Assembly: GCA_004322365.1 (NCBI GenBank)
Contig: SCTS01000006.1
Location: 4,777 to 68,776, forward strand
Length of the DNA: 64,000 nucleotides
From: Patescibacteria group bacterium
GTDB taxonomy: Bacteria > Patescibacteriota > Minisyncoccia > Phycocordibacterales > Phycocordibacteraceae
Reading direction: 5' to 3'
Shown here: positions 2,092 to 23,846 of the stretch, piece by piece
Layout of the letters: every line of letters starts with the position of its first letter
Numbering within the stretch: the stretch's first letter is position 1
The notes under the pieces: model-generated
What the model saw: the letters and a program-made list of their open reading frames with translations, nothing else
The model's database searches: none
What the model was told of the DNA's origin: nothing
Program-made: the position numbers and the translations under genes

Positions 2092-2646
2092 CTAAGCTCC
2101 GATTTCTTTAAACGTAACGCCTGGCGGCAGTGTAAATTTTGACTCATCAACTGTCCACGGCTGACAATCATAGTCGCCAATTGTCTCAGCATTAAAGCCA
2201 ATCTGACCTGATGCGGGAGCTACATTTGTTCCTTCAGGTGCCACCGCCTTTACCTTAAAGCCCATGCTTGGTGCCGCTGAAGTCCATGTATAGGTGTAAC
2301 CGTCGCGAAGTATGAAATCAGTCTGAATAGTTTTGCCGTAGGCTTCAGTCTTAAAATCCCCATTCATCATTCCTTTATATGCATACACAGTCCCCTTCGT
2401 CTCAAGATCACTTACATTTTGGACAACCGTACACTTACTTGCCTCACCACTCTTCAGAAATTCCGAGAACGCCATTTTCTTACCGCTCGGCTGTGCGAGA
2501 GCATTTGCTGTCTCAGTTTTTGAAACTGCACCCTTGTTTGAGGTAATCGCAAAGTATCCTCCTCCAACTACAACGGCACCAACGACAATCCAAAGTATTA
2601 TTTTTTGCATACGATTTAGCGAAATTATGTGAATCAGCAGATTCAT
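2092..2646 (-). CDS. hypothetical membrane-anchored/secreted protein
   Basis: N-terminal hydrophobic helix (likely true start at internal M, MQKIILWIVVGAVVVGGG). Lies directly downstream of an ArsR-type palindrome. No recognisable family. Confidence 0.4.
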   Translation of the reverse strand: MNLLIHIISLNRMQKIILWIVVGAVVVGGGYFAITSNKGAVSKTETANALAQPSGKKMAFSEFLKSGEASKCTVVQNVSDLETKGTVYAYKGMMNGDFKTEAYGKTIQTDFILRDGYTYTWTSAAPSMGFKVKAVAPEGTNVAPASGQIGFNAETIGDYDCQPWTVDESKFTLPPGVTFKEIGA

Positions 2647-2759
2647 GCCGGGCAGTGTCCATTGAAGCCCGGCCGGACGTCCATTAAGGGTCGACTAAAA
2701 ATTATCTTAATAGCTACACTCCTCAGTATACAAGAGACTTACATACCCACCACACAAAA

Positions 2760-2789
2760 CATTCCAACATTCTCAAGAATGTTGGAATG
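2760..2789. promoter_or_regulatory. 30-bp palindrome (14-bp arms, 2-bp spacer) CATTCCAACATTCT-CA-AGAATGTTGGAATG; putative ArsR operator
   Basis: Perfect inverted repeat read from sequence. A second copy lies at 3076-3105. This one sits between the arsR stop and the next gene. Confidence 0.6.
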
Positions 2790-3057
2790 TGGTGATGAAT
2801 CCAACCAGCATACGACCGTACGGAGAGAGCGAGTGTGCCACAGTTCTTCCTTGATACTTTTTATTCAGCAAACCTGCTTGCACCAAACGACGCGTATGTT
2901 CAGAAATTGTTTTTATATTAGAACCGAGACTTTGCGCTATGCCCTCAACCGTAATCTGATCATCAGTATTCACAAGAAGCAAAATCTCAATCCGATGATG
3001 ATTTGCGATCCCTTTAAAATGTCGCTCAAGTTGTTTACTTGTTTTTCCTTTCTTCAT
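2773..3057 (-). CDS. ArsR/SmtB family metalloregulator
   Basis: 94 aa with a winged HTH (HHRIEILLLV..ITVEGIAQSLGSNIKTISEHTRRLVQAGLL), typical of ArsR/SmtB. Confidence 0.8.
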   Translation of the reverse strand: MKKGKTSKQLERHFKGIANHHRIEILLLVNTDDQITVEGIAQSLGSNIKTISEHTRRLVQAGLLNKKYQGRTVAHSLSPYGRMLVGFITTFQHS

Positions 3058-3075
3058 ATATACACAGTACTACAT

Positions 3076-3105
3076 CATTCCAACATTCTTGAGAATGTTG
3101 GAATG
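3076..3105. promoter_or_regulatory. second copy of the 30-bp ArsR-type palindrome, 19-48 bp upstream of the arsR start
   Basis: CATTCCAACATTCT-TG-AGAATGTTGGAATG. Same arms as 2760-2789 with the spacer inverted. Confidence 0.6.
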
Positions 3106-3166
3106 TAAAAGTGAATTAGAGTATCTGAGTGATTTTTTCAAATATTCCTCTCTCTTTGTGAGTAAA

Positions 3167-3469
3167 CTACGCTTGGATTTCTATAGAAAAAGAGATCGAT
3201 TCCTCTGCATACACACCCTCCTTTTTTCGTACCTCAGCTTTAAGTGGGAGAAGATACGAACCAGCTTTTGTATCAGGAAAAATCGAAGTCTTCCAGACTG
3301 TTTTGCCAAGCGTCACCATTACTGGAAGTGAGCCCCATCCTCTTTTCATACCACCAAATTTCTTTTTAATTTCTTCTGATTGTTTTTTATCAATTGATAC
3401 AAAATGCCATCCAGACATTCCTGGATATAGCCGCACCTTGCTCACAACTTTGTACTTTCTTGATTTCAT
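3167..3469 (-). CDS. DUF1905-like small protein
   Basis: MSGWHFVSI core resembles the DUF1905 family. The ORF-track N-terminus probably over-extends; the internal start MKSRKYK avoids overlap with the upstream gene. Confidence 0.35.
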   Translation of the reverse strand: MKSRKYKVVSKVRLYPGMSGWHFVSIDKKQSEEIKKKFGGMKRGWGSLPVMVTLGKTVWKTSIFPDTKAGSYLLPLKAEVRKKEGVYAEESISFSIEIQA

Positions 3470-3497
3470 ATGGCAATTGAATAAAATTACTATTTTC

Positions 3498-4022
3498 CTA
3501 AATATTTGATAGAAAATTCTTCGCTTCTTTAGGAGAAGCAAGTTTGATTATTTTAGTTTGGTCTTTCAGTTGAGCGAGAAATTTATTGAGTGAAGCGGTC
3601 TCCCCCTTTGTCCAGACTAACTTGAGAAACTTCCAGCTAAATTTTTCAGGACTACCTTCAAGCTCAGAGCGAGGATTTTTCTTATGCATCCACCACCGCT
3701 GTATGTAGCGAAGTGACGCAACGAGAGGATGATAATCCAAATAAATTATTGACTCAGCACGCTCAAAAACAAAAGAGCGTGCCCCCTTAGCTATGTAGCC
3801 TTCAATAATCCACCGAGGCTTGGCACTTTCCTCATTAAGCTTTTTAACAGTCTCTTCATCTCCAATATAGTTCCATCCAGGCTTCCACATAATGGCATCC
3901 ATAAAGACAATTGGCAGATTCACTTTCGTAGCCAGCCTTCTTGCGAAAACTGATTTGCCTGAGGCACTGACACCAACTACGACAATTTTATTTCTCAGTT
4001 CTAAAGGATACAAAGGTAACAC
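3498..4022 (-). CDS. P-loop NTPase, topology-modulation/adenylate-kinase-like
   Basis: Walker A motif GVSASGKS near the N-terminus; size about 170 aa; resembles FlaR/YqaC-type kinases. Confidence 0.5.
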   Translation of the reverse strand: MLPLYPLELRNKIVVVGVSASGKSVFARRLATKVNLPIVFMDAIMWKPGWNYIGDEETVKKLNEESAKPRWIIEGYIAKGARSFVFERAESIIYLDYHPLVASLRYIQRWWMHKKNPRSELEGSPEKFSWKFLKLVWTKGETASLNKFLAQLKDQTKIIKLASPKEAKNFLSNI

Positions 4023-4030
4023 TTGGATTA

Positions 4031-4429
4031 CTAGCTAACCTCTATTTGAAAGTTATACATCCCCATGCCACATACCCCTTGTATTTTTTCGCCAGACTTA
4101 GAAATACCTAAATCAATCACCTCTTCACCAGTTGGTTGGAGTATCTTTTGGAAACCGACCGAACGGACAACGAGCGATGCAGAACAATCGTAGGTGCCGT
4201 CGGTTTTCACTACCAACTTTGTCGGTAGTCCTCCCTTGATTTGACTGACGCTCGGAGAATAACCACCCTTTGCGGTTATCGTTACGTACTGTACGCCATC
4301 TCTAATCTCTACATTCTGAGAATCCACCACTTCGTCACCTGAAGATGCTGGTCTGTCAGAAACGAAATACAGCATTCCCCCAATGAGTACAAGACTGATG
4401 ATTACGGATATGAGTATGTTCTTTTGCAT
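4031..4429 (-). CDS. membrane-anchored protein with Cys/Met-rich C-terminus (putative metal-binding)
   Basis: N-terminal TM helix. C-terminal YDCSAS..GVCGMGMY has Cys/Met residues suggestive of Cu(I) ligands. Sits in a metal-resistance context. Confidence 0.4.
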   Translation of the reverse strand: MQKNILISVIISLVLIGGMLYFVSDRPASSGDEVVDSQNVEIRDGVQYVTITAKGGYSPSVSQIKGGLPTKLVVKTDGTYDCSASLVVRSVGFQKILQPTGEEVIDLGISKSGEKIQGVCGMGMYNFQIEVS

Positions 4430-4445
4430 ATATTAACTAGTAAGA

Positions 4446-5453
4446 TTATATGTTAAATAAAGGATCAATAATACCGAGTCCGGCAAGTCCTGCGAGTAGT
4501 GCGAATGCTCCAAGGCCAATCACTAGAACTCCAGCAGATTTGAAAAAGAGCGGGGCGTGCTTTGACCCTGCAAATGAAGCAGAGCCAAAGGACAAAAGCG
4601 CGAGCATCGGGAGTGTGCCAAGGGCAAATGCAGTCATTATTAGAAATCCCGAGAGAAACGAACCGCTTGAGAGCGCAGCAATCTGCATTGTTTGAGTAAA
4701 CCCACAAGGCAAGAAAAATGTACCAACACCAATCAAGAACGGGGCTATCGTCTTATGTTCCACCTTGCGGAAGAAACTGAAAAATCCCGAGGGGAGAGCA
4801 ATCATATTTTTCTCAAATACTCCTACGAGATTAAGCCCAAGCAGAATCATCACTGTTGAAGCAATTATTCCCAGTATTGCAGTGAGAGTAAAACTAATTC
4901 CGATAGCGCTACCAATGGCACCGAGCACACCACCGAGTACAGCAAAACTAATAAGCCTGCCTCCGTGGAAAAGCATCATCGGCTTTACGTCACTAACCTT
5001 GTCCTGAGAGACTGTTGCGGAAAGGGAGAGCACTAATCCTCCAACAACCGCAAGACAACTTGAAACAGAAGCGACTAGTCCGATGATAAAACTTGTCACT
5101 GGTGTCACGGTCCCACCTAAACCAAAATTTAGGATTCCTGATTTTTGCACAATGAAAAACAGTGCGAGAAACGCTAGCCCGATGGGCAATGCCAGCCAAA
5201 TGACTCCACTGTTCTTGTTTTCCTTTGCTCGCTTCTCTATAGAGAGCTGGTAGCCATTCTGTTTAATTTGCTCGGTCAAAACTTCAGCAAGCATATGCTG
5301 CGAATCATCAAGATCGGTATCAAAAGAAACTGTCTCGTGCTTGAGATCAACTTGTGTATTTTTAATACCAATGTGCTCGTTCAGTGCATCCTCAATAAAG
5401 ATTTTGCAGGAGGCGCAGTGCGTGCCGGAAACGTGTAATGTGATAGTTTTCAT
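4446..5453 (-). CDS. HMA-domain fused to a polytopic permease (DsbD_2/UreH-like family)
   Basis: N-terminal heavy-metal-associated fold with GTHCASC (MxCxxC-type) motif, then about 6 TM helices. Start chosen at MKTITLHVSG. Confidence 0.6.
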   Translation of the reverse strand: MKTITLHVSGTHCASCKIFIEDALNEHIGIKNTQVDLKHETVSFDTDLDDSQHMLAEVLTEQIKQNGYQLSIEKRAKENKNSGVIWLALPIGLAFLALFFIVQKSGILNFGLGGTVTPVTSFIIGLVASVSSCLAVVGGLVLSLSATVSQDKVSDVKPMMLFHGGRLISFAVLGGVLGAIGSAIGISFTLTAILGIIASTVMILLGLNLVGVFEKNMIALPSGFFSFFRKVEHKTIAPFLIGVGTFFLPCGFTQTMQIAALSSGSFLSGFLIMTAFALGTLPMLALLSFGSASFAGSKHAPLFFKSAGVLVIGLGAFALLAGLAGLGIIDPLFNI

Positions 5454-5475
5454 AATTGATACTATTTCTCTGGAT

Positions 5476-5697
5476 TTATACAATCTCTCCTTTTTTCTCA
5501 AGCGTCATGTGATGGAGCGTCGCAAGTTGAAGCCAAATGGCAATCAATATTCTAATACCAGCATCAATAAAAAGATGGTTCTGATTCAAACCAAAGACCG
5601 TTCCGCTTGGACCGGCAATATACGCCCCGACAAGCGCTACAATTCCCGCTACGCCTACAATGACGCTCACCACATGCAATATTTTTGATATCTTCAT
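5476..5697 (-). CDS. small 2-TM membrane protein with conserved HHM motif
   Basis: 73 aa. Clear paralog of the ORF at 60601-60819; both end in ..LIAIWL..T.HHM.LEK.GEI. Both are adjacent to metal-transport genes. Confidence 0.5.
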   Translation of the reverse strand: MKISKILHVVSVIVGVAGIVALVGAYIAGPSGTVFGLNQNHLFIDAGIRILIAIWLQLATLHHMTLEKKGEIV

Positions 5698-5729
5698 ATA
5701 TTTTTACTTTTAATTAATTTTTAATAAGA

Positions 5730-6350
5730 TTATTTGTACCAACTTTCATACCAGCCCTGCATTTGCTGAATCTCTTTGGCTTGAGAGTCAATAATATTTC
5801 TTGCGAGCTGTTGCATTTCTGGCTGTGCAGTTCCAGATTCAAGCATGCGAGCCATCATGATTGCCATTTGATGATGCGGAATCATAGCCTCGATAAATGC
5901 CTTGTCGAAATCAGGTGCATTTTTTAAAGCTTCAATATCCTGTGCACCTCCCATGTGCATGCCGCCCTGTGACATCATTCCGCCAATCATGGCACTGCCT
6001 TTTGATACTTCTTTTCCAAACCAATCTTTGTACCAGCTTTTCATCTGCTGATTTTCAGATTCTTGTGCGCTTACGATGGCTTGGGCAAGCGTCTTTATTT
6101 CAGGTCTTTTTGCTTTCTCGAGCGCAAGATTTGCCATAGCAATTGCTCCATCATGATGAGATATCATCTGTTCGATGAAGTGTTTATCAATCGAACTCAC
6201 ATTTGCTGACTGAGGGGTTTGATTTTGGTTGTTTCCCCATGACATCATTCCACCATATCTCATCATGGGAAAGAATATTGCCGCAAAAATGAGACCGATA
6301 ACAATTCCGCTTACTCCGTACATGACGCTATTATTTTGATTGTTGTTCAT
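5730..6350 (-). CDS. DUF305 family protein (copper-resistance-associated, Met/His-rich)
   Basis: Duplicated HH-containing helices (ISHHDGAIAMA.., IPHHQMAIMMA..) after an N-terminal TM segment. Hallmark of DUF305. Confidence 0.7.
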   Translation of the reverse strand: MNNNQNNSVMYGVSGIVIGLIFAAIFFPMMRYGGMMSWGNNQNQTPQSANVSSIDKHFIEQMISHHDGAIAMANLALEKAKRPEIKTLAQAIVSAQESENQQMKSWYKDWFGKEVSKGSAMIGGMMSQGGMHMGGAQDIEALKNAPDFDKAFIEAMIPHHQMAIMMARMLESGTAQPEMQQLARNIIDSQAKEIQQMQGWYESWYK

Positions 6351-6393
6351 AGTTTTGTAGTTACTGTAATAATGACCTTTCTAATAGAAATAG

Positions 6394-7524
6394 TTATGGG
6401 GTGCCACCCATATCCTTATTCCACATACTAATACCATTTGGCATTTCACCAATTTTTATTCGAGCAACTTCTTTGTTTGATAGCGCGTCTATTACAGACA
6501 TATCCTTACTCAACAGGTTTGTTACATACACGAACCGTCCAGCTTTATCTACTACGATGCCGTGCGGTCCGTCCCCTGCAGGTATGACCTGATCAACTTT
6601 TTTTTGGCCAATATCAATTCGATACACTGTATTCCCGATAGGCTGATCAAAGTAGTACCCCTGGTTTACAACATAGAGATATTTTGAATCAGGAGTTGCG
6701 TACAATTGGACTGATCCTTTAGCGTCCTCTGGGAGGTCAATGTATCCTTGTTCTTCTGTCTGCGTCTTAATCCATGCTACTTTTTTTGTGTTGTAAACGG
6801 AACCGAAGACATAGTTTCCATCGGAGGTTACCGCCGTCTGAATTACCGCGCCCGACAGTGGATATTCTAGTACTGAGTAATTTTTAAGGCTGACTTCAGC
6901 AATTGCCTTTCCGCCAATCAATGCAACATATAGTTTTGAATTATCAGGTGAGAGGCGCAGACCGTGAGGTTCACTTTTTTCACCAATAGAAATTGATTTT
7001 TCTATTTTTTTGTTGGTTAAGTCAATGCTATATAAAATCCCTTTCTCTTGCGACATAACATAGGCGCGGGTGCCCGCATCATTGATGACAACGTGCGCAA
7101 GATGCGAGTCTATTTCAATCGGTAATGATCCCGTCACAGTGTCAGTCTTCGGATCAATGAAGAATACTTTGTCGTAGAGGTCGTCCGAGACATCTTCATT
7201 ATTTGATTCACTCTCTCCCATGACACCTCGCTTCACATTAGCGGTGACAAGAACAATTTTTCCATTCGGAGCCACTTGCACATTGTGAGTGGTGTACCCC
7301 ACAAACTTGCCATTCTGGACTTCGGAGAGGTCAATTGATTTAATAACCTTACGCGAAGCGGTATCAACGACGCCCACTCTTCCCTCCTCTTCTATCGCGA
7401 CATACACTTTCTCAGTGTAGTTTTGAGCACCACCAATGTTGCTTTGAGACGAGAAAAGAAATGCTGCGATGAAAAAGGGTGACAATGCAAGAGCTATGGC
7501 TGCTATGAGTGATATTTTTTTCAT
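6394..7524 (-). CDS. secreted YVTN-type beta-propeller repeat protein
   Basis: Signal peptide then repeated about 40-aa units (..YVALIGG.., ..FVYVTNLLSKDMSVID..) typical of YVTN propellers. Confidence 0.55.
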   Translation of the reverse strand: MKKISLIAAIALALSPFFIAAFLFSSQSNIGGAQNYTEKVYVAIEEEGRVGVVDTASRKVIKSIDLSEVQNGKFVGYTTHNVQVAPNGKIVLVTANVKRGVMGESESNNEDVSDDLYDKVFFIDPKTDTVTGSLPIEIDSHLAHVVINDAGTRAYVMSQEKGILYSIDLTNKKIEKSISIGEKSEPHGLRLSPDNSKLYVALIGGKAIAEVSLKNYSVLEYPLSGAVIQTAVTSDGNYVFGSVYNTKKVAWIKTQTEEQGYIDLPEDAKGSVQLYATPDSKYLYVVNQGYYFDQPIGNTVYRIDIGQKKVDQVIPAGDGPHGIVVDKAGRFVYVTNLLSKDMSVIDALSNKEVARIKIGEMPNGISMWNKDMGGTP

Positions 7525-7528
7525 ACCG

Positions 7529-9823
7529 TTATAGTTTCTTTACTTTTAGACGGAGTGAGTTCGTGACCACCGAAACACTCGACATAGCCATCGCAAATCC
7601 CGCAAAGACAGGCGACAACAACCAACCAAAGAACGGAAAGAATATTCCGCTCGCCAGTGGTATGCCAACGATGTTGTATATAAATGCCCAGAACAAATTT
7701 TGTTTGATTCCGCGCATTGTTAACTTTGAGAGGCGAATCGCTTTCACTATTTTAGAAACATCTCCATGAAGAAGCGTAATCCCCGCGCTTTCAATGGCCA
7801 CGTCTGTTCCTGTCGCCATTGCAATACCAACGTCAGCTTGCGCGAGCGCTGGCGCGTCATTCACCCCGTCCCCTGCCATTGCGACGACATACCCCTTGCT
7901 TTGTAACTCCTTAATTTTTGCCAGCTTATCAGCAGGCATGACCTCTGCCACAACCTCATCAATACCAACTTGATCGGCAATATAGCGTGCGGTGTTTTTG
8001 TTATCACCGGTAAGCATTACCACCTTAATCCCAAGCTTGTGCAGATTCTTTACCGCCTCAATGGCTTCCGGCTTTATCGCATCCGCAACCATAAACACCC
8101 CGAGCAACTTTTCTTTTGTTGCAAGCAAGACGGGTGTTTTACCTTCAGTGGTTTCTTTTGTTATTGACTCCGTGTCGAAACTGAGCCCTAGGTCTTGTAT
8201 TAATTTTGTATTACCTGCGAAGTATTCAACACCATCAATTAACCCCTTCACTCCTTTGCCTTTGATCGCTTCAAAACCAGTAACAGTAGGAATATCTATT
8301 TTTCTTTCTTTGGCGGAGGAAGCAATGGCGTGGGCGATTGGATGTTCAGATTTATTTTCAAGTCCTGCCAATACCGAAATAATGTTACTCTCCGATTTCT
8401 CTGAAAGATTTTTAATGGATACTAACTCAGGCTTCCCTCGAGTGAGGGTACCTGTCTTGTCGACCACGACAGTAGTCACCTTGTGAAGTTTTTCCAAAGT
8501 AGCAGCATCTTTCACTAAAATTCCTTCACGAGCGCCTTTGCCTACTCCCACAATAATCGCAGTGGGCGTAGCGAGCCCCAATGCACATGGACATGCAATT
8601 ACCAGAATTCCTACGAAAGAAACAAGTCCGTACGAAAGTGCTTGAGAGAACCCTAGGTACGGTGTACCTATCAAGAGCCATAGGTCGAGAGCAATGACTG
8701 CCAATACCAAAACTACTGGGACAAAAACAGACGAAATTTTGTCAGCCAACGCTTGAATGGGCGCCTTACTTCCTTGAGCGTCTTCAACCATTCTAATAAT
8801 CTGAGACAGGAAAGTCTGTGACCCAATTTTTGTTGCTCTAAACGTAAATACGCCTGAGGTGTTAATAGTTCCGGCCACTATCGAATCACCAAATTCTTTC
8901 TTCACTGGCATTGGCTCACCAGTAACCATAGATTCATCAACAAAAGACTCCCCTTCAGTTATTTCGCCATCAACTGGAATCTTTGCGCCAGGCTTTACGA
9001 TGATAAACTCGCCTACTTTCACTTGGTCTATGGGTATTTCTATCTCCTTTCCATCCCGTATGACGAGCGCGGTCTTTGCCTGAAGATTCAATAGCTTTTC
9101 AATCGCGTCACCTGTTTTAATCTTCGATTTTGCTTCCAGATATTTACCAAGCGTAATGAATGCAATCACCACGATAGTCACGTCGTAATAACTTTGATCA
9201 ACATTCAAATATGGGCGGAGCGATGTCTCGAGAGCCGCTATCATTAAGCTGTATGTGTACGCGGCAAGTGTTCCAATCCCTATAAGGGTGTCCATATTTG
9301 CTTTGCCATAGCGAATGAAGCGATACACACCAAGAAGATACGGTTTACCGACTACAAAAAGCACATACGTTGCAAATGCCGGTAATAGGTGATGAAAAAA
9401 TTCAGACCAAACATAGGGCATCGCCGAAATGATTTTAAATTGGGCGAGAATGTCCCACCCCATGATGAAAGCGGCAAAAATGGCAATGGGAATTGCTGAG
9501 AGTACCTTTATACGCATATCTGCAACCTCCGCTAACTTTTCCTTCTTTGTTTGATTGAGCCCGAGGTGTGCGGCATGATCTTCCGGAGACATACCCATTT
9601 CTAGAGCCGTAGCAGGGATATCTAGAGAATATCCGAGAGGCTCAATATGTTTTGATAGTTCGTGTGCGTTCGTTTTAGCGGGGTCAAAAGAGACCTTCGC
9701 TTTTTCAGTCCCATAGTTTACTTCTGCAGAATGCACGCCTTCAACTTTCTTAAATGTCTTCTCGATAGTCGAGGAGCACGAAGCACAGTGCATTCCTTTA
9801 ATGTTATACGTTTGTGTTTGCAT
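7529..9823 (-). CDS. copA: copper-translocating P1B-type ATPase
   Basis: N-terminal HMA (GMHCASC), CPC motif ([11 protein letters not shown]), DKTGT phosphorylation site, GDGVNDAP hinge. 764 aa. Confidence 0.9.
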
Positions 9824-9847
9824 ATTACTTGTAGTGAGTCTGTCGAA

Positions 9848-10123
9848 CTATTTCCTCTTTAATTTATACACCTTGAGAATTTCTTCTTTTGCCTTGTCTA
9901 TTTTGCCTGACTTCACTTGATTTAAGATGCAGCCACCAAGATGATTCTCGAGGAGAAGATCTTCAACATTCGAAAGCCCCTGTTTTACTGCAGATGTCTG
10001 GGTAATTACATCAATGCAATAGATATCACTCTCAACCATCTTTTGAAGCCCTCGAACTTGACCTTCTAAAAGTTTGAGTCGGCGAATGACTTTCGCTTTA
10101 CTAGTATCATCCATGTATTTCAT
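9848..10123 (-). CDS. csoR: CsoR/RcnR family metal-sensing repressor
   Basis: About 90 aa after trimming to the internal Met (the ORF-track start is GTG at 10165). RRLKLLEGQVRGLQKMVE..YC..H..C is the CsoR signature. Confidence 0.8.
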   Translation of the reverse strand: MKYMDDTSKAKVIRRLKLLEGQVRGLQKMVESDIYCIDVITQTSAVKQGLSNVEDLLLENHLGGCILNQVKSGKIDKAKEEILKVYKLKRK

Positions 10124-10128
10124 ACAAA

Positions 10129-10156
10129 CAAGTATACCCCCTAGGGGGTATACTTG
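10129..10156. promoter_or_regulatory. perfect 28-bp palindrome CAAGTATACCCCCTAGGGGGTATACTTG; CsoR-type operator
   Basis: Read directly from sequence. GC-tract pseudo-palindrome of the ATACCC..GGGTAT type, 5 bp upstream of the csoR start codon. Confidence 0.7.
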
Positions 10157-10163
10157 CAAGTCC

Positions 10164-10191
10164 ACATACCCACATTTGAGTGTGGGTATGT
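10164..10191. promoter_or_regulatory. second palindrome ACATACCCACA-TTTGAG-TGTGGGTATGT between the cusA stop and csoR
   Basis: 11-bp arms with ends related to the CsoR box (TACCC..GGGTA). Could be a second operator or a T-run-less terminator of cusBA. Confidence 0.45.
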
Positions 10192-13100
10192 TACTGATCT
10201 GCCACTTTCTGAAATTTCTTCAGAATATTCTCAAGCTTCGGCATATCGTGATGCCTGAAGTGATAGAACACTGATGGTGTGAAGATGAGTGACACTATCG
10301 TTGAGCTGATAAGTCCTCCAAAAATCACAACCGCGAGTGGGTGTAGAAGCTCTTTGCCTGGCTCTTCTGCTCCGATAAGAAGTGGTACAAGCGCGAGCGC
10401 GGTGACAAGTGAGGTCATAAGAACGGGAACGACACGGTCAAGTGTTGCCTTAAGAACTATCTCCTTCGTTACTCCGTCTCTACTCTCTTTACCTACTAAG
10501 TTGAGCGTGTGACTAATAAGGATGATTCCGTTTCTCGATACGATACCCGCGAGCGATATGAATCCAACGAGGTGTGCGAGATTTATTTCGCCTCCAGTAA
10601 CCCACACTGCAACCATGCCGCCGAATATGGCTGACGGAATATTGAGCATTATCTGGAGCGCAATTGGAATTGACTTGAAGGTCTGATACAGAACCCAAAG
10701 AATAAGCAGAAGTCCTACCGCAAAGAGAATACCGAGTCGCTGGCTGTTTTCTTTCTGACTCTTATAAGTACCTTCATACGAGATGGACTGTCCCTGTGGT
10801 AGTTTTTCTTTGTCCATTGTTTGCTTAACCACCTCAACAGCACCAACAATATTTCCACCTTCATAGTTAGCGCTCACCACAAGAACGCGTTTCCCGCCTT
10901 CATGACTAAATTTATTTCGCCCAGCATCAAGGCGGAGTTCCGCTACATTGCCGAGAGACTCTACTCCATCAAAAGGAAGCGAGAGATCTCGTATGCCGTC
11001 ACTGTTGCCACGCCATGAAGGGTCATACCGAAGAACGACATCAGTACGAGCGGCACCTTCTTGAATCTGACCAATTTTGACTCCAAGAAGACCTTCTTCA
11101 AGTTCTTCTGCAACTTCGCCACTCGATACGCCGTAGTCTGCTAGCCGATTGCGGTCTGGGTAAATACGAAGTTCCGGAAGAAGCACTTCTTTTTGTACTT
11201 GTGGATTTTTTACCCCTTCTTGTTTTGCGAGCTCTGCACGAATCATATCTCCTGTCTGCTTAAGCTCGGATAGATTGTCTCCATACACTTTAACCACTAT
11301 AGGAGCACGAACTCCGGATAGTAGTTCTTCAACACGGTGAGTTATTGGCTGACCTATCGAGAAGTCTGCACCAGGGAATCTATCGACTACTTTCTGTATT
11401 TCGGCGAATAGTTTTTCGCGTTCACCTTCAAGGCCTTGCTCGAAGGTTACCTGGATCTCGCTCGTGTTTGCTCCACTGTCGTGAGGATCTGCACCCGCAC
11501 GACCAGTAATGTGTCCTGCGCGTGCGACACCATCTATTTTTCCTATCTCTTTTTCGACACGAGATGCAAAAGCATTTGACGTTCCAAGATCTGTCCCGAC
11601 AGGCATAACCACAGAGATAGTTGCGGAACCTTCATTGAACGGTGGTATGCCTTCCTTACCTGCAAGCATATACATACCAACAGTGATGAGTATTCCAACG
11701 CCTGTGGCCATCATAAGTGGGCGCACATGATCAATGCCCCACATAATGACAGGGGTCATTTTTGTTTTTATGAAGCGCACGAATTTCGTATCACCTTCAT
11801 GTCCTGTTAGATGTTTTGGTGTGAGCAATAATGCGCACAGCGCGGGGGTTATGGTCACTGACACCACGAGTGACGCGAGCAGTGCAATTAGGTATGCACT
11901 TCCAAGAGACGCCAAAAGACGACCTTCAACTCCCGGAATAAAGAATACGGGCAAGAACACTATCACCACGAGAACAGTCGCAACGACAATCGAACTCAGA
12001 ACTTCGCGAGTGCCCTCATACACAACAGACTGTATTGACTCTGTTGATCCTGATGCTTTCCATTCTCTAAGTCTTCTGAAAACATTCTCAACGCCCACGA
12101 TGGCATTGTCGACCAACTCACCGACTGCAACCGCAATGCCACCTAAAGTCATCACGTTCACAGAGAATCCCAGCAACTTGAAGACAATCAAGGTGACGAG
12201 AATGCTGAATGGAATAGATACAAGAGTGATGAAAGTCACCCTTCGATGCATCAAAAACAGCGCGAGAATAATAGCGACCACAACAACACCTTCGAGGAGC
12301 GCTTTGTAGACGTTATTAAGCCCCGCATCAATAAACCATTCTTGACGAAACAAGTCGTTCTGTAAGGTCACTCCTTCAGGAAGGGATTGCTTGATACCGT
12401 TTAATGCATCATCGACGGAAGCCGTTACCGCGAGTGTCTCCGCTTCCGGCTGTTTTGCAATACGAAGAATGACTCCGGGCTTGCCATCTATAGTTGCACT
12501 GCCACGCACTGGACTCACACCAGAAACTACTGTTCCGATGTCTGCGAGACGTACACCACGGCCATTCCATGTCGTAATGCCAATTTCTTCGATTTCGGCC
12601 ATGTCTTGGGGAGAAACAAGAATGCGAAGTGGGTATTCCTTACCACCCTGCACCAAAAGTCCGCCACTCTTGTTCGTGATTGCAGAGCCAAGCTTCTCTT
12701 CAACATCAGAGATTTTGAGACCGTAGCGTCGCATCGCCTCGGGATTAAGATTGACCTGCCACTCCTTCACATCACCGCCAAGTACGATAATATCGCTCAC
12801 ACCTGGGACGCGCAGAAGCGCTGGTCGCACTGTCCAATCGGCAAGTGTGCGCAACTCTTTACTGTCGGATGTTTCGTCACTCGAGGTAAGTCCAACCCAC
12901 ATAATCTCGCCCATGATGGAGCTCACTGGGCCGAGTACGGGGCGAACATTTGGCGGAAGATCAAGACGTGAAATCCGCTCTTGAATGATTTGTCGATTAC
13001 GATATATATCTGACCCCCAATCAAACTCCGCTTGCACAATGGCGAGTCCAAACGATGCGGTTCCGCGCACGCGTGTGACACCTGGTGCGCCAGCAACCGC

Positions 13101-13343
13101 ATTTTCAACTTGAGAGAGAATTAAACGCTCAACCTCTTCAGGCGCAAACCCCTCAGCTTCGGTAAATACCGCGACCGTTGGTTTGTTAATGTCTGGAAGC
13201 ACGTCGACTTTCATAGTCACGAAGCTCCACGTTCCAAGTAGAATGAGCGCGACAAATACTGCCACAGTCCGCCACTGATGTTTGAGAGAAAGTGAAATAA
13301 TACGATTCAACATACTATTCGTCGTGAGCATGGCCATGCCCAT
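10191..13343 (-). CDS. cusA: heavy-metal-efflux RND permease (CusA/CzcA family)
   Basis: 1050 aa, 12-TM RND architecture with two large periplasmic loops; sequence style of HME-RND. Confidence 0.85.
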   Translation of the reverse strand: MGMAMLTTNSMLNRIISLSLKHQWRTVAVFVALILLGTWSFVTMKVDVLPDINKPTVAVFTEAEGFAPEEVERLILSQVENAVAGAPGVTRVRGTASFGLAIVQAEFDWGSDIYRNRQIIQERISRLDLPPNVRPVLGPVSSIMGEIMWVGLTSSDETSDSKELRTLADWTVRPALLRVPGVSDIIVLGGDVKEWQVNLNPEAMRRYGLKISDVEEKLGSAITNKSGGLLVQGGKEYPLRILVSPQDMAEIEEIGITTWNGRGVRLADIGTVVSGVSPVRGSATIDGKPGVILRIAKQPEAETLAVTASVDDALNGIKQSLPEGVTLQNDLFRQEWFIDAGLNNVYKALLEGVVVVAIILALFLMHRRVTFITLVSIPFSILVTLIVFKLLGFSVNVMTLGGIAVAVGELVDNAIVGVENVFRRLREWKASGSTESIQSVVYEGTREVLSSIVVATVLVVIVFLPVFFIPGVEGRLLASLGSAYLIALLASLVVSVTITPALCALLLTPKHLTGHEGDTKFVRFIKTKMTPVIMWGIDHVRPLMMATGVGILITVGMYMLAGKEGIPPFNEGSATISVVMPVGTDLGTSNAFASRVEKEIGKIDGVARAGHITGRAGADPHDSGANTSEIQVTFEQGLEGEREKLFAEIQKVVDRFPGADFSIGQPITHRVEELLSGVRAPIVVKVYGDNLSELKQTGDMIRAELAKQEGVKNPQVQKEVLLPELRIYPDRNRLADYGVSSGEVAEELEEGLLGVKIGQIQEGAARTDVVLRYDPSWRGNSDGIRDLSLPFDGVESLGNVAELRLDAGRNKFSHEGGKRVLVVSANYEGGNIVGAVEVVKQTMDKEKLPQGQSISYEGTYKSQKENSQRLGILFAVGLLLILWVLYQTFKSIPIALQIMLNIPSAIFGGMVAVWVTGGEINLAHLVGFISLAGIVSRNGIILISHTLNLVGKESRDGVTKEIVLKATLDRVVPVLMTSLVTALALVPLLIGAEEPGKELLHPLAVVIFGGLISSTIVSLIFTPSVFYHFRHHDMPKLENILKKFQKVADQ

Positions 13344-15015
13344 CTCCTCCCGGAGCTGTAGCAGGTTGCTCAGTTATGGCAGCGTCCTCGATTCGCATGC
13401 CTTCAGTAATAGTGTCTGACGCTTCTCTAATGTAGGTATCGCCGAGTGTGAGACCCTCAAGTATTTCGACTGCATCTCCGAACGTCCTACCAGTTTTGAC
13501 TGCCTGAGACGTTACGAGACCTCCCTCTTTCACCATCCATACATGTGGATGATTTACTTCGTCCCAGAACACAGCATCAAATGGGACTACAATAGTTTGA
13601 CTGGTCCGCTTTTCAGGCACTATTCGCACTGATAGGTGTGCAGGCCATTCGAGCTCGCCTTCTACTCGTGCATCGGCCATGAATGCGCCGTTACCATCGA
13701 GCGCTGTACCAACTCCGATTATCGTTGCCGTGCGTACATCCTTCGCAAATCCAGGTCGAATTACTTTTACCGTCTCTCCCTTTTTCGGCACTTCGACATT
13801 GCTTGGGATTCTGAAACGAATAAGCTTATTGATTTGTACCCCTGAGCTTATAGATGCAACTGTTTTCCCTGGTTCTACAAATTCACCGATTTGCCCGAGG
13901 ATAGCAGATACATATCCGCTTTTTGGTGCAATAATCGCCGTGCCGCCGGTGATTGCTCTAGATGCCGCGCCGTATGCTGCTTGTGCCGCTTCGTATTCTG
14001 CTTCTGCGGTTAATTGATCGCGATCGAGTTCAGTATTTTTGTTTGCATTATCACGATTTCGCTCCGCGAATTCTTTTTCCTTTTCAGAAACAGTCAGAAG
14101 CGCTTCACGGTACTTTCCAACCGCCTCATTGAAGCTGGCTTGATGCTCACTGATAAGTTCTCGTAAGTCATTGAGTTCTGCTTGGGTGAATCCCTCTCCT
14201 GAAGAAATGCTTGCAGCTGCCAATTGAGTCGCAACAAGAAAGTACGCAAGACCCTCCTGTTGTGACACTGAGTCTTTTTCAAGAGCGGAAACTACTTTCG
14301 CAGTCGCCGTGAGATATTTATCACGAAGACTGGAATTTGTGACTCCGAACCACCACGGAAGAGTTGTTAAGAATGTGGCATCCTTTGAACTCAAAATATC
14401 CCTATTGTTTCCAGAAAATTCGGAGAACTCCTTAACTACCGATTGTCTTAGGACACCTTTCGCCGTTTCCCCGGCTGCTATTGCCGCTTGCTTTGCTTCA
14501 CTAATTGCTCGCTCTGCTGTGTCGTTTGTTGTGAAGATAGTAAGTTGGGTTTTGGACTGTCCGACGAAACTCTGAGTTGAAGAAAGTTTCGATTTAGCTC
14601 GCGCCACTTCTCCAGCACGCTCCGCGAGAGTGGTTGCGAGTTCCGGTGTAAGTGGCGCAGCCGATAACCGTCCGAGAACCTCTCCAGCGTTCACATATTC
14701 GCCAATAGTGACATTCCACGAAACAACAGTGCCTTGTCGTGGTGGTTGCACATCAGCGTCGTTAGGAGAAATGATTTCTCCCGGCCACGAGGCGAAGGTG
14801 GCGAATGCTTCGCTTTCTGCGCCAACAGTTTGCGTCGCAAGATTTACTTTCTGAAATTCTGTTATTGTGTTTGCCGGTTCTAAAGATGAAGGAAAGTTTA
14901 GCACTCCCAATGTAACCACAAGAACCGTAAACACTCCTGATGCTGCCTGTGTAGTTAAAGGAAGTTGCTTAAACGAACCCCATACGCCTAAGAAAGCGTT
15001 GAGTAATTTTTGCAT
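13315..15015 (-). CDS. RND membrane-fusion (periplasmic adaptor) protein, CusB-like, with C-terminal His-rich tail
   Basis: N-terminal TM, coiled-coil and lipoyl/beta-barrel regions, C-terminus GGDGHGHAHDE. Unusually long at 566 aa. Confidence 0.7.
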   Translation of the reverse strand: MQKLLNAFLGVWGSFKQLPLTTQAASGVFTVLVVTLGVLNFPSSLEPANTITEFQKVNLATQTVGAESEAFATFASWPGEIISPNDADVQPPRQGTVVSWNVTIGEYVNAGEVLGRLSAAPLTPELATTLAERAGEVARAKSKLSSTQSFVGQSKTQLTIFTTNDTAERAISEAKQAAIAAGETAKGVLRQSVVKEFSEFSGNNRDILSSKDATFLTTLPWWFGVTNSSLRDKYLTATAKVVSALEKDSVSQQEGLAYFLVATQLAAASISSGEGFTQAELNDLRELISEHQASFNEAVGKYREALLTVSEKEKEFAERNRDNANKNTELDRDQLTAEAEYEAAQAAYGAASRAITGGTAIIAPKSGYVSAILGQIGEFVEPGKTVASISSGVQINKLIRFRIPSNVEVPKKGETVKVIRPGFAKDVRTATIIGVGTALDGNGAFMADARVEGELEWPAHLSVRIVPEKRTSQTIVVPFDAVFWDEVNHPHVWMVKEGGLVTSQAVKTGRTFGDAVEILEGLTLGDTYIREASDTITEGMRIEDAAITEQPATAPGGDGHGHAHDE

Positions 15016-15029
15016 AATGGTATGTGAGA

Positions 15030-15263
15030 TTAGTCGTTATGTGGCGCTGCTCCCGTGTCATCGTGAGGTACCGCAGTAGTGTCGTTGTGTGGAGCGGTAC
15101 CAGTATCATCATGCGGTGCAATATTTACCGTTTTTTGTTGAGTTGTTGTAGTGTCGCCGGTCTTCGCGTTACCGTCTGATGCTGATTTTCCAAGAACTGT
15201 ATAACCGATAAGGCCACCAACGATAACAATGCCCGCAATAAGAATCAATACTGTTTTGTTCAT
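15030..15263 (-). CDS. small membrane-anchored protein with tandem APH(D/N)DT repeats
   Basis: N-terminal TM then four PH[DN]DT repeat units. The DNA shows the matching tandem 24-bp repeats. Immediately upstream of cusB. Confidence 0.45.
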   Translation of the reverse strand: MNKTVLILIAGIVIVGGLIGYTVLGKSASDGNAKTGDTTTTQQKTVNIAPHDDTGTAPHNDTTAVPHDDTGAAPHND

Positions 15264-15336
15264 AGTTGTTTTAGATTAGAGTCGAAAGTAATAGAAAAAA
15301 TCGTGCAAAAATATGCCACGAATTGTAACGATTCTT

Positions 15337-15717
15337 CTAAAACAGCAGTTGAGTTTTTTGTTGTAGCGGGAGACGCGGTGGGAGTTTTTCTTTCGCGAGA
15401 TGTGTGGAAATTAGATAGTCGTCAAAGTGTACAAAGCTTGAGTTGACGACGACAGATATGCAATAACCCAGACCACCAGTAGAATGCTGATTATCGTCAG
15501 AAACTGTTCGATTGCTTATTATCTGATGAAGTTCTGTTAGACACGGAGAATGGTTATCAGAGTCGGGTGCATGGGGCACTTTGTCCTGATGGGTCTGATC
15601 ATTTGCAAAAGCGACAGAGGGCGATAGGAGTGTATGTCCAAATGTGAAAAAGACGGCAGCAAGGAGCAACGCGACACCAAAAAGTTTTCTCTTCGAATCC
15701 TTACGCTTTGGAAACAT
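15337..15717 (-). CDS. hypothetical secreted His-rich protein
   Basis: Signal/TM segment then HQDKVPHAPDSDNHSP. First gene of the co-directional metal block. Confidence 0.35.
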   Translation of the reverse strand: MFPKRKDSKRKLFGVALLLAAVFFTFGHTLLSPSVAFANDQTHQDKVPHAPDSDNHSPCLTELHQIISNRTVSDDNQHSTGGLGYCISVVVNSSFVHFDDYLISTHLAKEKLPPRLPLQQKTQLLF

Positions 15718-19600: not shown

Positions 19601-19601
19601 G

Positions 19602-20132
19602 TTATTTTACTTCTGCCACGAGCGCTCCGAGAGTCGGGCTACCACTCCACTTTTTAATAAGGTTTCCGTCTTTATCAACCTGCACAAAAGTGTGCTGATA
19701 TGTCACGCCGTACTTTTGTTTAAGCGCAGTAGAGGTATCGTAGTTCACATCTAATATCGAAAGACCTGGAGGAATCTTTGAAAGATTAGCTTTAATATCG
19801 GCATCTATTGTTCTACACGTTGGACACCAGCTGGCTTGGAAAAACAACACTACATCATGGGTAGCCGAAGCTACTGCTACTTTTTCAGGTGCATATGCTT
19901 CATATGATCCCGCTTTCATCATAGTATCGCTCGTATCCATCATGCTATCGGTCTGAGTGGTGTCGGCTTTCATCATTTCTTCCCCCTCTTTCGGTGTATC
20001 TTTCATCATTGCTGAATCAGCCTTTTTAGTATCCATCATTGTGTCATCCTTACTGTTGAGGAATGCATACACCCCTCCAGCAATCACCACTAACGCTATA
20101 ACTCCGATAATAATTCCTATGTTTTTGTTCAT
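19602..20132 (-). CDS. membrane-anchored thioredoxin-like protein with Met-rich linker
   Basis: TM helix, MM-rich segment (MMDTKKADSAMMKD..EEMMKAD..SMMDTSDTMMK), WCPTC active site. Confidence 0.65.
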   Translation of the reverse strand: MNKNIGIIIGVIALVVIAGGVYAFLNSKDDTMMDTKKADSAMMKDTPKEGEEMMKADTTQTDSMMDTSDTMMKAGSYEAYAPEKVAVASATHDVVLFFQASWCPTCRTIDADIKANLSKIPPGLSILDVNYDTSTALKQKYGVTYQHTFVQVDKDGNLIKKWSGSPTLGALVAEVK

Positions 20133-20185: not shown

Positions 20186-20221
20186 AAAAACAGATGTAAA
20201 GTAGACTTTACATCTGTTTTT
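20186..20221. terminator. bidirectional rho-independent terminator
   Basis: AAAAA-CAGATGTAAAG-taga-CTTTACATCTG-TTTTT. 11-bp perfect stem flanked by an A-run and a T-run. Confidence 0.7.
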
Positions 20222-20245
20222 GGGGAAAACTTACACATGTAGCCT

Positions 20246-20608
20246 CTAGAGGTTTGTATCGCTCCATGTTCGAGTACCAATCTTGACCACCACCATTGCA
20301 ATGAGAGCAATAACGAGCCATGGATCTACCGCGTGTGTATAGCCTTGAATCACTATGCCAAGGGTAAGTACGCCTGATCCTGCAAGAAATGCGTTTCTTC
20401 CAGCAAGGGCACGGTGCTGGGCATCACGCTCGTCAACCAAACTTTCTCGAAGAATGAAGCTGGCAAATATCCCGAAAAGTCCTAACGTTAGCGCCAGCAT
20501 GCCCATCACCATCATGTCTGGCATCCAGAAATGAAATGGATTAAGTAGCAAAATTGCAATTGCAATCAAAGCTACGGTAACAATGATTTCTTTAAGATTA
20601 TTTTTCAT
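20246..20608 (-). CDS. small polytopic membrane protein, cotranscribed partner of the XRE regulator
   Basis: 4 TM helices; overlaps the XRE gene by 11 nt. Confidence 0.4.
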   Translation of the reverse strand: MKNNLKEIIVTVALIAIAILLLNPFHFWMPDMMVMGMLALTLGLFGIFASFILRESLVDERDAQHRALAGRNAFLAGSGVLTLGIVIQGYTHAVDPWLVIALIAMVVVKIGTRTWSDTNL

Positions 20609-20810
20609 AGGATATTTTAAATATTTTCTCGACAGGTATCTTAAAGAAACCGGCGATTTTTAAAGCGAGTAAAATAGATGGCGTGTAGTTCCCTTTTTCC
20701 AAGGCAATGATAGTTTGTCGACTAACATTCACTTTGGAAGCAAGATCCTCCTGCGTCATACCCATCTCCGCTCTGTATGTACTTACCTCATTTTTTATCT
20801 TTTCCTCCAT
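20598..20810 (-). CDS. XRE-family HTH transcriptional regulator
   Basis: 70 aa; MTQEDLASKVNVSRQTIIALEKG is a canonical XRE HTH. Confidence 0.75.
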   Translation of the reverse strand: MEEKIKNEVSTYRAEMGMTQEDLASKVNVSRQTIIALEKGNYTPSILLALKIAGFFKIPVEKIFKISYEK

Positions 20811-20843
20811 ATGTAATGATAATTCAATTGTACCTATCAGCCT

Positions 20844-20873
20844 ATGCTATGTAAAGAGGACTTTACATAGCAT
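20844..20873. promoter_or_regulatory. perfect 13-bp-arm palindrome ATGCTATGTAAAG-agga-CTTTACATAGCAT upstream of the XRE gene; putative operator
   Basis: Read from sequence. Shares the TGTAAAG..CTTTACA core with the terminator stem at 20191-20216. Confidence 0.55.
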
Positions 20874-23820: not shown

Positions 23821-23846
23821 GAGATGTACCCAATACTATATAGTGT

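Follow-up and report, generated by a model that had tools for sequence, protein, structure and literature searches.

Metal pumps belonging to the RND (resistance-nodulation-division) superfamily are textbook tripartite machines of diderm bacteria, among them CusCFBA of Escherichia coli, which handles Cu(I)/Ag(I) (PDB 3K07/3NE5), and ZneCAB/CzcCBA of Cupriavidus metallidurans (PDB 4K0E, 3LNN). Their heavy-metal efflux (HME) family has been described as Gram-negative. Bacteria of the Candidate Phyla Radiation (CPR) have been proposed to be without an outer membrane; such few cells as have been described are monoderm, most CPR bacteria not having been examined. Membrane-fusion proteins (MFPs), the adaptors of such pumps, are also known from Gram-positive bacteria: Spr0693 of Streptococcus pneumoniae forms a hexameric nanotube with a 56 Å α-barrel on an ABC pump and is proposed to carry substrate across the inner-wall zone, and a specialist review calls the role of MFP hairpins in Gram-positives puzzling. 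Here we describe an adaptor and RND transporter encoded in a 64-kb stretch of contig SCTS01000006.1 of a Patescibacteria group bacterium (assembly GCA_004322365.1), in the following called the window. Both genes belong to an unbroken, tight series of open reading frames (ORFs) on the minus strand, running from position 15717 down to 2092, which the original prediction had described as a 14-gene co-directional copper/heavy-metal resistance island with a CusBA-type pump. On balance we lean towards a composite copper-homeostasis island with a copper-linked two-component RND pump, the adaptor of which forms the exit duct.

The pump unit (15717-10191, minus strand, as are all genes of the series) comprises a secreted 126-residue protein, a small protein with PHDDT repeats, a 566-residue adaptor and the RND transporter. 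The adaptor is 100% identical to EPO14_01950 of a Patescibacteria group bacterium. The original prediction had seen hints of a monoderm organism and hence a topology puzzle, and the assignment of the host to the Patescibacteria by this match, together with the monoderm nature of the few described CPR cells, bears this out. To search for outer-membrane factors (OMFs), we built a hidden Markov model from 45 OEP proteins taken from diderm control loci, in which an OEP protein lies directly before the MFP-RND genes. Searched against all six-frame ORFs of the window and against 35 fetched CPR loci, including flanks of up to 10 kb, the model gave no match at E ≤ 1. In the diderm control loci, which stem from the same genome scan as the relatives, it detects an OMF within 10 kb in 44 of 50; the six without one are short contigs. 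The predicted lack of an OMF gene near the RND pair is thus upheld for the window, and the OMF partnership of a tripartite HME-RND pump is absent locally, both there and in the 35 CPR loci. The puzzle of an OMF-less pump is genuine and broader than one locus.

The gene of the transmembrane (TM)-anchored membrane-fusion or periplasmic adaptor extends from 13315 to 15015, and its product matches TIGR01730 with 104.2 bits (cutoff 94.9). The AlphaFold2 (AF2) monomer model, with a mean predicted local distance difference test (pLDDT) score of 79.7 and values above 90 along the helices, consists of an N-terminal TM helix, lipoyl, β-barrel and membrane-proximal domains and an α-hairpin. The two hairpin helices (residues 124-201 and 278-356) are about 78 residues long each, the hairpin region measures 233 residues, and its tip carries an insert of about 75 residues (202-277) modelled with high confidence as three short helices. 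Foldseek aligned the model with TMexC, AcrA, MexA, MacA, EmrA, ZneB and CusB, each at probability 1.0. The alignments with TMexC, AcrA, MexA and MacA extend over 500+ columns and identify the four-domain fold of periplasmic adaptor proteins, while the tip insert is absent from the matched structures. Five tip residues (G224, Y258, L265, A268 and S269) are invariant or near-invariant across the adaptor family. An exhaustive profile search yielded 103 adaptor clusters (50% identity) at E ≤ 1e-30, about 60 of which match end to end at 540-670 residues. The family is discrete, and ordinary MFPs of 355-420 residues surface only near E = 1e-20, as split matches; a second homologue search with the adaptor alignment added no further sequences. 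The median adaptor length is 571 residues in CPR loci versus 361 residues for the diderm MFP controls. The C-terminal tail of the window's adaptor is His-rich (GDGHGHAHDE).

The RND gene (10191..13343) encodes 1050 residues, although translation likely begins at 13313, i.e. at Met11, the counterpart of CusA Met1 in the alignment. PF00873 (ACR_tran, 762 bits) spans residues 15-1029 of 1050, in keeping with a full-length 12-TM AcrB-type architecture. The top NCBIfam model is TIGR00914 (CusA/CzcA family), followed by multidrug RND models at 499 bits; against PDB sequences, CusA (379 bits) and ZneA (372 bits) lead, followed by MdtB (232 bits). In an alignment of 121 CPR homologues with CusA, the CusA Met triad M573/M623/M672 coincides with I576/V632/E673 of the window's protein; the three positions hold I/V/L, V and E throughout, so that the triad is absent from 121 of 121 sequences. 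CusA D405 is retained as D412, CusA E939 corresponds to an invariant Arg (R937), and K984 presumably aligns with a Val, a reading for which we assume part of the CusA C-terminus. Invariant in all 121 proteins are E409, D412 and E419 of TM4 as well as H611, D619, H621, E629, H669, E672 and E673 of the cleft region. The porter-cleft region scores higher with ZneA (47 bits) than with CusA (41 bits), and D619/H669/E673 line up with ZneA D602/D654/D658, which we take to be zinc ligands of the proximal site. The predicted CusA/CusB-like character of the pair therefore stands at the level of the HME family and falls for the mechanism, given the missing Met triad; orthology to CusBA is ruled out because neither the triad nor E939 is conserved. 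Judged from its residues, the transporter appears HME-like and not CusA-like in mechanism. Among the 120 RND clusters listed as relatives (60-97% identity), the named ones are Patescibacteria/CPR, including Magasanikbacteria, or an unclassified "bacterium".

To see which genes travel together, we scanned one genome per species in GTDB with an alignment of adaptor homologues as query. The scan yielded 28 loci with full-length relatives of the adaptor, from metagenome-assembled genomes (MAGs) of Paceibacteria, Adler-, Lloyd-, Magasanik- and Saccharibacteria, and the 50 ordinary diderm MFP loci used as controls, which match only the adaptor's C-terminal half. Three close relatives (L083-L085; loci are given by such handles where needed) carry adaptors 86-87% identical to that of the window. 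For counts of linkage, every protein of the window served as tblastn query against the 28 loci, whose flanks extend to at most 10 kb and to less on several short contigs. Every one of the GTDB loci (28/28) and of the close relatives (3/3) has an RND gene adjoining the adaptor gene, and in all of these the partner motor is an RND protein and never a MacB-type ABC protein. Within 10 kb of the pump, CopA is found in 16/28 loci and in all three close relatives (89% identity in L084/L085, 45% in L083), and a fusion of an HMA domain to DsbD_2 in 10/28 and again in 3/3; it is paired with a cupredoxin in 7/28 and 3/3. CsoR lies near the pump in 9/28 loci and the DUF305/CopM protein in three. The small protein with an HHM motif is found in 9/28 loci by tblastn, and ORF clustering places it beside RND or copper genes in six related loci and the window; a multicopper oxidase (MCO) was found near the pump in five loci by de novo clustering of neighbouring ORFs. 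The propeller gene occurs in 0/28 distant loci and follows copA directly only in the close relatives L084/L085 (76% identity). In L083-L085 the order is 127-residue protein, 71-74-residue protein, MFP, RND, (MCO), CsoR, CopA, (propeller), HMA-DsbD_2, cupredoxin, (MCO). The copper operon lies upstream of the pump in L008 and downstream of it in the window, and because the order is shuffled between loci while the same gene set stays close together, the linkage points to functional coupling.

The regulatory sequences of the relatives also bear on this coupling. CsoR-type boxes, sought with the pattern TACCC-N(2-10)-GGGTA, lie 17-56 bp upstream of the first gene of an operon encoding a 134-160-residue TM protein, MFP and RND in four loci (L022, L025, L027, L029), upstream of an MCO-PHDDT-MFP-RND operon in L012, and upstream of the MCO gene that follows the RND gene in L083. 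A box also precedes csoR itself in seven loci (L008, L018, L025, L029, L083-L085). As an observation on the close relatives, the island of L084 (1-9255) has a large serine recombinase, DNA methylases and a terminase-like gene for neighbours, and that of L085 (1-6590) ribonucleotide reductase, MsrB and MarR genes; these differing surroundings hint that the island may move with a phage-like or integrative element.

The pump unit begins with the gene of the 126-residue protein (15337..15717), which has a signal peptide ending in AFA followed by a His/Asp-containing region and no Pfam match. Counterparts of 123-127 residues are encoded at the corresponding place in L083-L085 (59-67% identity) and L005/L009 (40-43%), and tblastn scores the protein in 2/28 loci. 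The 77-residue, membrane-anchored protein with PH(D/N)DT repeats follows at 15030..15263. By its sequence and its position upstream of the adaptor, it is a candidate extracytoplasmic metallochaperone. Members of its family (62-97 residues) lie directly upstream of the adaptor in eight GTDB loci with adaptors more than 50% identical and in L083-L085; by tblastn the protein is detected in 9/28 loci, only where the adaptor exceeds 50% identity. The family motifs GDGHTEAQH and PHDDTG share the chemistry of the adaptor tail, which reads PEGDGHGHAHDE (His/Asp) where the neighbour is a His/Asp small protein with GDGH and PHDDTG repeats. In a sister clade the adaptor tails are Met-rich (AAMRAMGM, HAGHGGMEM, MKGMIMDN) where the neighbouring small protein is Met-rich. 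Such co-variation would be expected for a hand-off from chaperone to adaptor, by analogy with CusF and CusB. The sister clade encodes an anchored Met-rich protein of 107-127 residues directly after the RND gene in 11 loci (L016, L019, L021-L027, L029, L031), and directly before the adaptor a multi-TM protein of 134-160 residues with a conserved Cys-containing loop in nine loci (L021, L022, L024-L027, L029-L031; 385 residues in L024). A YtkA-like His/Met protein of 307-336 residues is found near the pump in six loci.

The pump unit is not part of a single operon with the genes that follow. Protein families were assigned with Pfam and NCBIfam models at curated cutoffs, and the assignments, e.g. 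of CsoR and CopA, uphold the copper/heavy-metal nature of the cluster. They also confirm the earlier labels CsoR, CopA, YVTN propeller, DUF305, HMA plus DsbD_2, DUF1905 and ArsR-type HTH_5. According to the ORF list and translations, the predicted co-directional run is real, yet it consists of 15 ORFs and not 14, as the original prediction itself names them; three ORF starts had been over-extended, namely those of csoR (real start 10123), HMA-DsbD_2 (about 5453) and DUF1905 (about 3469). Shared orientation is uninformative here since nearly all large ORFs between 1357 and 44988 lie on the minus strand, with a negative GC skew throughout the same stretch. What had been taken as a single 14-gene unit falls into at least three transcription units: a hairpin and a CsoR-operated promoter separate RND from csoR, and the ArsR gene has twin operators of its own. 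A promoter with operator inside the run, the hairpin that follows RND and the operators belonging to ArsR itself rule out one 14-gene operon; the run is a composite of the pump unit, a CsoR-repressed copper operon and unrelated tail genes. The hairpin (10164..10191), a fully complementary (100%) inverted repeat ACATACCCACA/TGTGGGTATGT with an 11-bp stem, covers the RND stop codon (10191-10193) with its outer arm and is a possible terminator or RNA-stability element. The G+C content at 10-15 kb, i.e. of RND and adaptor, is 0.46-0.50 as compared with about 0.42-0.44 in the flanks, consistent with the pump unit having been taken up from another CPR lineage.

The copper operon (10159 to about 4031) reads csoR-copA-propeller-CopM(DUF305)-HHM-HMA/DsbD_2-cupredoxin. 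Its sigma-70-like promoter TTGCAA-17-TATACT (10129..10159; hexamers at 10159-10131) is overlapped by a perfect 14+14 palindrome (10129-10156) that contains the CsoR-type box TACCCCCTAGGGGGTA. The operator lies 12 bp before the ATG of the 91-residue CsoR; the window holds two such boxes versus 0.12 expected. CsoR (9848..10123; PF02583, 80.7 bits) has as best NCBIfam match RicR, a copper-sensing repressor, and its translation displays the x-C-H-C ligand pattern, with the Cys in DIYC and H-x3-C in ENHLGGC. The start was set to 10123 because the CsoR operator falls inside the longer ORF and relatives call a 91-residue protein. Promoter and operator before csoR and the hairpin after RND thus make csoR-copA a separate, self-repressed unit. 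CopA (7529..9823), a Cu(I)-exporting ATPase of type P1B-1 whose N-terminus bears an HMA domain, matches TIGR01511 with 612 bits (cutoff 397) and contains the HMA CxxC, CPC, YN and MxxSS motifs. It is followed by a membrane-anchored or secreted seven-bladed YVTN/YncE β-propeller (6394..7524; PF21783, TIGR02276), whose sub-threshold NCBIfam matches to the AztD zinc chaperone (E = 4e-5) and a lactonase-type N2O reductase (49 bits) may serve as a lead for a metal-binding role and not as evidence of one. The DUF305/CopM-family extracytoplasmic copper-binding protein (5730..6350; PF03713, 148 bits) has two repeats and reaches 115.7 bits with the CopM metallochaperone model NF049983 (cutoff 90). The next gene (5476..5697) encodes a 73-residue, two-TM protein with a conserved C-terminal motif (I/L)HHM(M/I/T)LEK and no Pfam match. 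Downstream lie the fusion of an HMA domain (CxxC) to the DsbD_2 membrane domain (4446..5453; PF00403 and PF13386) and a membrane-anchored cupredoxin-like protein (4031..4429) with candidate Cys/Met ligands and no His; formerly listed as a Cys/Met protein, the latter is now assigned to Cupredoxin_1 (PF13473, 28.1 bits, cutoff 27). The csoR-copA portion is ordinary, and the individual families are already known.

The window contains a second copper module (60843-63060, minus), in which a CsoR-family gene (ATG at 63035, x-C-H-H) is followed by that of a 639-residue P1B ATPase. The second csoR is preceded by the CsoR-type box TACCCCTAGGGGGTA (63046-63060) beside a TATAAT; it stops early (…KLSMRC*), and another frame carries the expected C-terminus KAIDEMLKVYKLIQKKK, an indication of a frameshift or of a sequencing error within an A7 run. 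Rich in His at its N-terminus, the ATPase carries a CPH motif and lacks an HMA domain, as in the CopB/P1B-3 type.

Taken together, these data suggest the following course of events. Rising Cu(I) would release CsoR from the operator at 10129-10156, a step well supported by family assignment and operator, and CopA would export Cu(I) from the cytoplasm, well supported by its family. On the outer side of the membrane, copper would be buffered or relayed by CopM, by the cupredoxin together with HMA-DsbD_2, by the HHM protein and perhaps by the propeller, as the family assignments support well. The anchored His/Asp protein and the adaptor tail may then capture copper at the membrane outer face, either as Cu(II) formed after oxidation or as Cu(I), and feed it into the RND cleft. 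Here, the RND trimer would employ a His/Asp/Glu metal relay in place of the CusA methionine relay, and the proton gradient, acting through E409/D412/E419 of TM4 and R937 of TM10, would drive the metal upward. Finally, a hexameric adaptor assembly with an α-hairpin barrel of about 115 Å and the tip domain would carry the metal past the zone of wall and S-layer without TolC. As a wider and decidedly tentative proposal, CPR bacteria may have evolved a self-sufficient two-component RND system in which the doubled-length α-barrel and tip replace TolC as a possibly gated duct, fed by interchangeable His/Asp or Met metallochaperones.

A number of points weigh against this reading. The OMF search covered 64 kb and flanks of up to 10 kb rather than whole genomes, and the monoderm envelope of this organism is taken over from the group. 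Moreover, eight of the 28 related loci (L014, L018, L019, L021, L025, L027, L030, L032) bear NCBI diderm-phylum labels ("uncultured Gammaproteobacteria/Cytophagia/Flavobacteriales", third-party annotation (TPA) MAGs). These loci carry the CPR-type long adaptor and RND without an OMF in the fetched flanks, and in several of them CopA, CsoR or HMA-DsbD_2 is 69-81% identical to the window; because several genes are so highly identical to CPR genes, the labels are probably wrong. As to the adaptor, the oligomer or duct is extrapolated from a monomer prediction, and the hairpin length of about 115 Å follows from 1.5 Å per residue applied to the secondary-structure string, not from coordinates. The transporter stays below the TIGR00914 cutoff (645.2 bits against 701.45), and its His/carboxylate ligands at the ZneA-aligned positions suit Zn, Co, Ni or Cd at least as well as copper. 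Lastly, only weak AT-rich inverted repeats and no CsoR box of the pattern given above precede the window's own pump unit, so that copper regulation of this copy follows from linkage only.

The substrate is the point at which the most serious rival enters. The pump might export a divalent ion such as Zn(II), Co(II), Ni(II) or Cd(II), in the manner of CzcCBA/ZneCAB, with the copper genes belonging to a general metal-resistance island. The better cleft score with ZneA, the ligands aligned with D602/D654/D658 and the absence of the Met triad from all 121 sequences are in its favour, as are the His/Asp-rich accessory protein and adaptor tail of this clade and the annotation of the RND relatives as CzcA family by the Joint Genome Institute (JGI). 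Yet the pump operon in four loci, and an MCO-pump operon in a fifth, stand directly behind a CsoR-type box, the recurrent neighbours are MCO, CopA and CsoR, with no CzcD-, ZntA- or Zur-type genes seen in the related loci, and the Met-rich tail and accessory protein of the sister clade are typical of Cu(I)/Ag(I). We therefore judge a divalent substrate to be unlikely, if still worth serious consideration, and favour copper.

The long adaptor could also be explained without a duct. In a plain single-membrane exporter, the RND protein would carry metal outward from the cytoplasm or the membrane face; the adaptor would only deliver substrate and activate the transporter, a role already proposed for Gram-positive MFPs, and its hairpin would serve oligomerisation or anchoring to the wall. 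Reviews report that MFPs stimulate transporters and bind metal without engaging an OMF, the role of the Gram-positive hairpin being unexplained, and the metal-ligand tail with its matching small protein suggests a delivery role. What such an exporter hardly explains is the retention of a 233-residue hairpin region and a folded tip in at least 60 divergent clusters; in addition, the solved monoderm MFP Spr0693 does make a tube. A plain exporter thus appears rather unlikely to us.

Still less probable, in our view, is a third partner of unrecognised kind, with the tip docking on a pore in the wall or S-layer, on a protein unrelated to OMFs, or even on the envelope of the epibiont's host cell. 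Diderm MFPs touch TolC at the hairpin tip, precisely where the present family bears an extra, conserved subdomain of about 75 residues, and clade-specific proteins are encoded nearby, i.e. the 126-residue protein, the Cys-containing TM protein of 134-160 residues in nine loci and the YtkA-like protein of 307-336 residues in six. However, only MFP and RND are universal, no further gene being linked in all clades; the adjacent proteins are small, rich in metal ligands and chaperone-like rather than channel-like, and no OMF-like ORF occurs in the 35 fetched loci. That the pair is a decaying, non-functional relic of transfer from a diderm, as the raised G+C at 10-15 kb and the serine recombinase and terminase beside the island of one close relative might suggest, is very improbable in view of the intact, translationally coupled pump ORFs, the 120 listed RND clusters of 60-97% identity with invariant proton-relay and ligand residues, and the lineage-specific accessory genes and regulation of the pump.

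Next to the copper island, whose exporter we continue to read as a copper-linked pump with an adaptor duct, lie four further members of the series. Of the accessory genes in the original prediction, those of the PHDDT and HHM proteins, HMA-DsbD_2 and the cupredoxin accompany the pump or the copper genes in relatives, as do the propeller gene in close relatives and that of DUF305 in three loci. The P-loop, DUF1905, ArsR and 184-residue protein genes are linked in 0/31 related loci and so lack the conserved linkage whose failure the prediction itself had named as speaking against it; the four are, as far as their sequences and synteny indicate, unrelated neighbours of the copper island. The P-loop protein (3498..4022) had been called a P-loop kinase. 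It resembles the FlaR-type "DNA topology modulation" protein (NF005994, 110 bits, below the cutoff). It is followed by the DUF1905 protein (3167..3469; PF08922, 76 bits), a passenger like the former, by the ArsR-family unit (2759..3105, gene 2773-3057; HTH_5, 26.1 bits, cutoff 22), and by a membrane-anchored or secreted 184-residue passenger protein (2092..2646) without a Pfam match above the cutoff, located downstream of the second of two palindromes.

The two palindromes bracket the ArsR gene. They are perfect copies of one 30-nt 14-2-14 element, CATTCCAACATTCT-NN-AGAATGTTGGAATG, at 3076-3105 in the ArsR promoter region and at 2760-2789, where the copy overlaps the ArsR stop and lies upstream of the 184-residue protein gene; none would be expected by chance. 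They are probably operators of this ArsR-family regulator, unrelated to the CsoR system, although the downstream copy could alternatively be a terminator. Metal sensors of the ArsR/SmtB family are recognised by an α3N Cys motif or an α5 His/Asp/Glu motif. The 94-residue ArsR protein of the window has no Cys and no recognisable α3N or α5 metal site in its sequence. It gives the impression of an independent unit that regulates itself and may extend its control to the 184-residue protein gene. As metal sensor of the island it was ruled out, for it has no ligand residues, comes with palindromes of its own and, in the relatives, shows no linkage to the pump.

Redox genes upstream of the series (17852-20132) and VIT1 (1357-2064) were likewise considered as members of the island and rejected, as they lie within 10 kb of the pump in 0/31 loci. 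The former, on the minus strand, comprise a DsbD_TM-Redoxin-Thioredoxin_10 fusion adjoining an anchored thioredoxin with a Met-rich linker, MMDTKKADSAMMKDTPKEGEEMMKADTTQTDSMMDTSDTMMK, whose composition suggests that it might bind Cu(I). Further along, a region of low G+C (about 20200-28350; 0.37-0.39 at about 23-27 kb) ends at a tRNA-Gln gene (28277-28348) and contains a RhuM fragment, DUF2779, N6_N4_Mtase and D12 methyltransferases, DUF6997, a HEPN protein and a trypsin-like peptidase, and has the look of an island for restriction-modification/defence or of a mobile one. An apparently near-complete cluster for de novo pyrimidine synthesis (31649-41687, minus) encodes carA, carB, a phosphoribosyltransferase, dihydroorotate dehydrogenase, aspartate/ornithine carbamoyltransferase and OMP decarboxylase, together with GTP cyclohydrolase II, a set worth noting in a CPR genome as the group is usually described as biosynthetically poor.

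How does the pump compare with the systems introduced above? With CusCFBA it shares the branch of the RND superfamily, CusA being its best PDB match, as well as an adaptor gene directly upstream of RND, a small extracytoplasmic metal-binding partner analogous to CusF, and linkage to copper genes. In contrast to CusCFBA, the window has no CusC-type OMF, the Met triad and most Met pairs of CusA are replaced, E939 has become an Arg and TM4 holds an extra Glu. CusB has a short helical domain and an N-terminal Met site, whereas in the present adaptor two long helices form a hairpin with a tip domain and the ligand tail is C-terminal; the nearby regulator is CsoR and not CusRS. ZneCAB/CzcCBA come near-equally close, ZneA doing better in the porter cleft, where acidic and His residues of the window's transporter occupy the positions aligned with D602/D654/D658. 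Unlike these systems, ours has no OMF, an adaptor about 200 residues longer, and a copper context (CsoR, CopA, MCO) in place of czcD/czcRS. The TM4 motif of ZneA/CzcA is of the DFG-DGA-VEN type, and that of the window's transporter reads AVGELVDNAIVGVEN.

The copper operon resembles csoR-copZA of Bacillus subtilis and the cso operon of Mycobacterium tuberculosis in its C-H-C CsoR, in the csoR-first arrangement with a P1B-1 CopA, and in the GC-rich TACCC...GGGTA-type palindrome overlapping the promoter. It differs from them in lacking a separate CopZ, in adding propeller, CopM, HHM, HMA-DsbD_2 and cupredoxin genes, and in following an RND pump. EmrA (PDB 4TKO) shares with the CPR adaptor, besides its Foldseek match, a TM-anchored N-terminus and an exceptionally long α-hairpin. 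EmrA, which is not known to have a membrane-proximal domain, works with a major facilitator superfamily (MFS) transporter and docks to TolC, while the CPR adaptor keeps four domains and pairs with RND.

No such RND/adaptor system in CPR bacteria was found in the literature searched, which omits most subscription journals. Were the adaptor duct to replace TolC as proposed, the pump would represent a new architectural class of RND systems and a direct model for MFPs without an outer membrane; being compact, with two genes to express and image, it could serve to test the adaptor alone as exit duct. It is, in addition, of interest for the ways in which CPR epibionts deal with copper and for the monoderm/diderm past of the group. 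The nearest precedent for the adaptor's function is Spr0693 of the Spr0693-0694-0695 system of S. pneumoniae, which, like YknWXYZ of B. subtilis, has an MFP without an outer membrane. Their motors are MacB-type ABC proteins for peptides or antibiotics, whereas the motor here is a proton-driven HME-RND protein for metal, and the predicted hairpin barrel is about twice as long as that of Spr0693 (about 115 versus 56 Å) and bears the tip insert. What is new compared with all of these systems is an HME-RND pump recurring in CPR bacteria with no OMF gene within up to 10 kb in 35 loci, double-length adaptors with a tip, matched metallochaperones and, in several loci, CsoR control.

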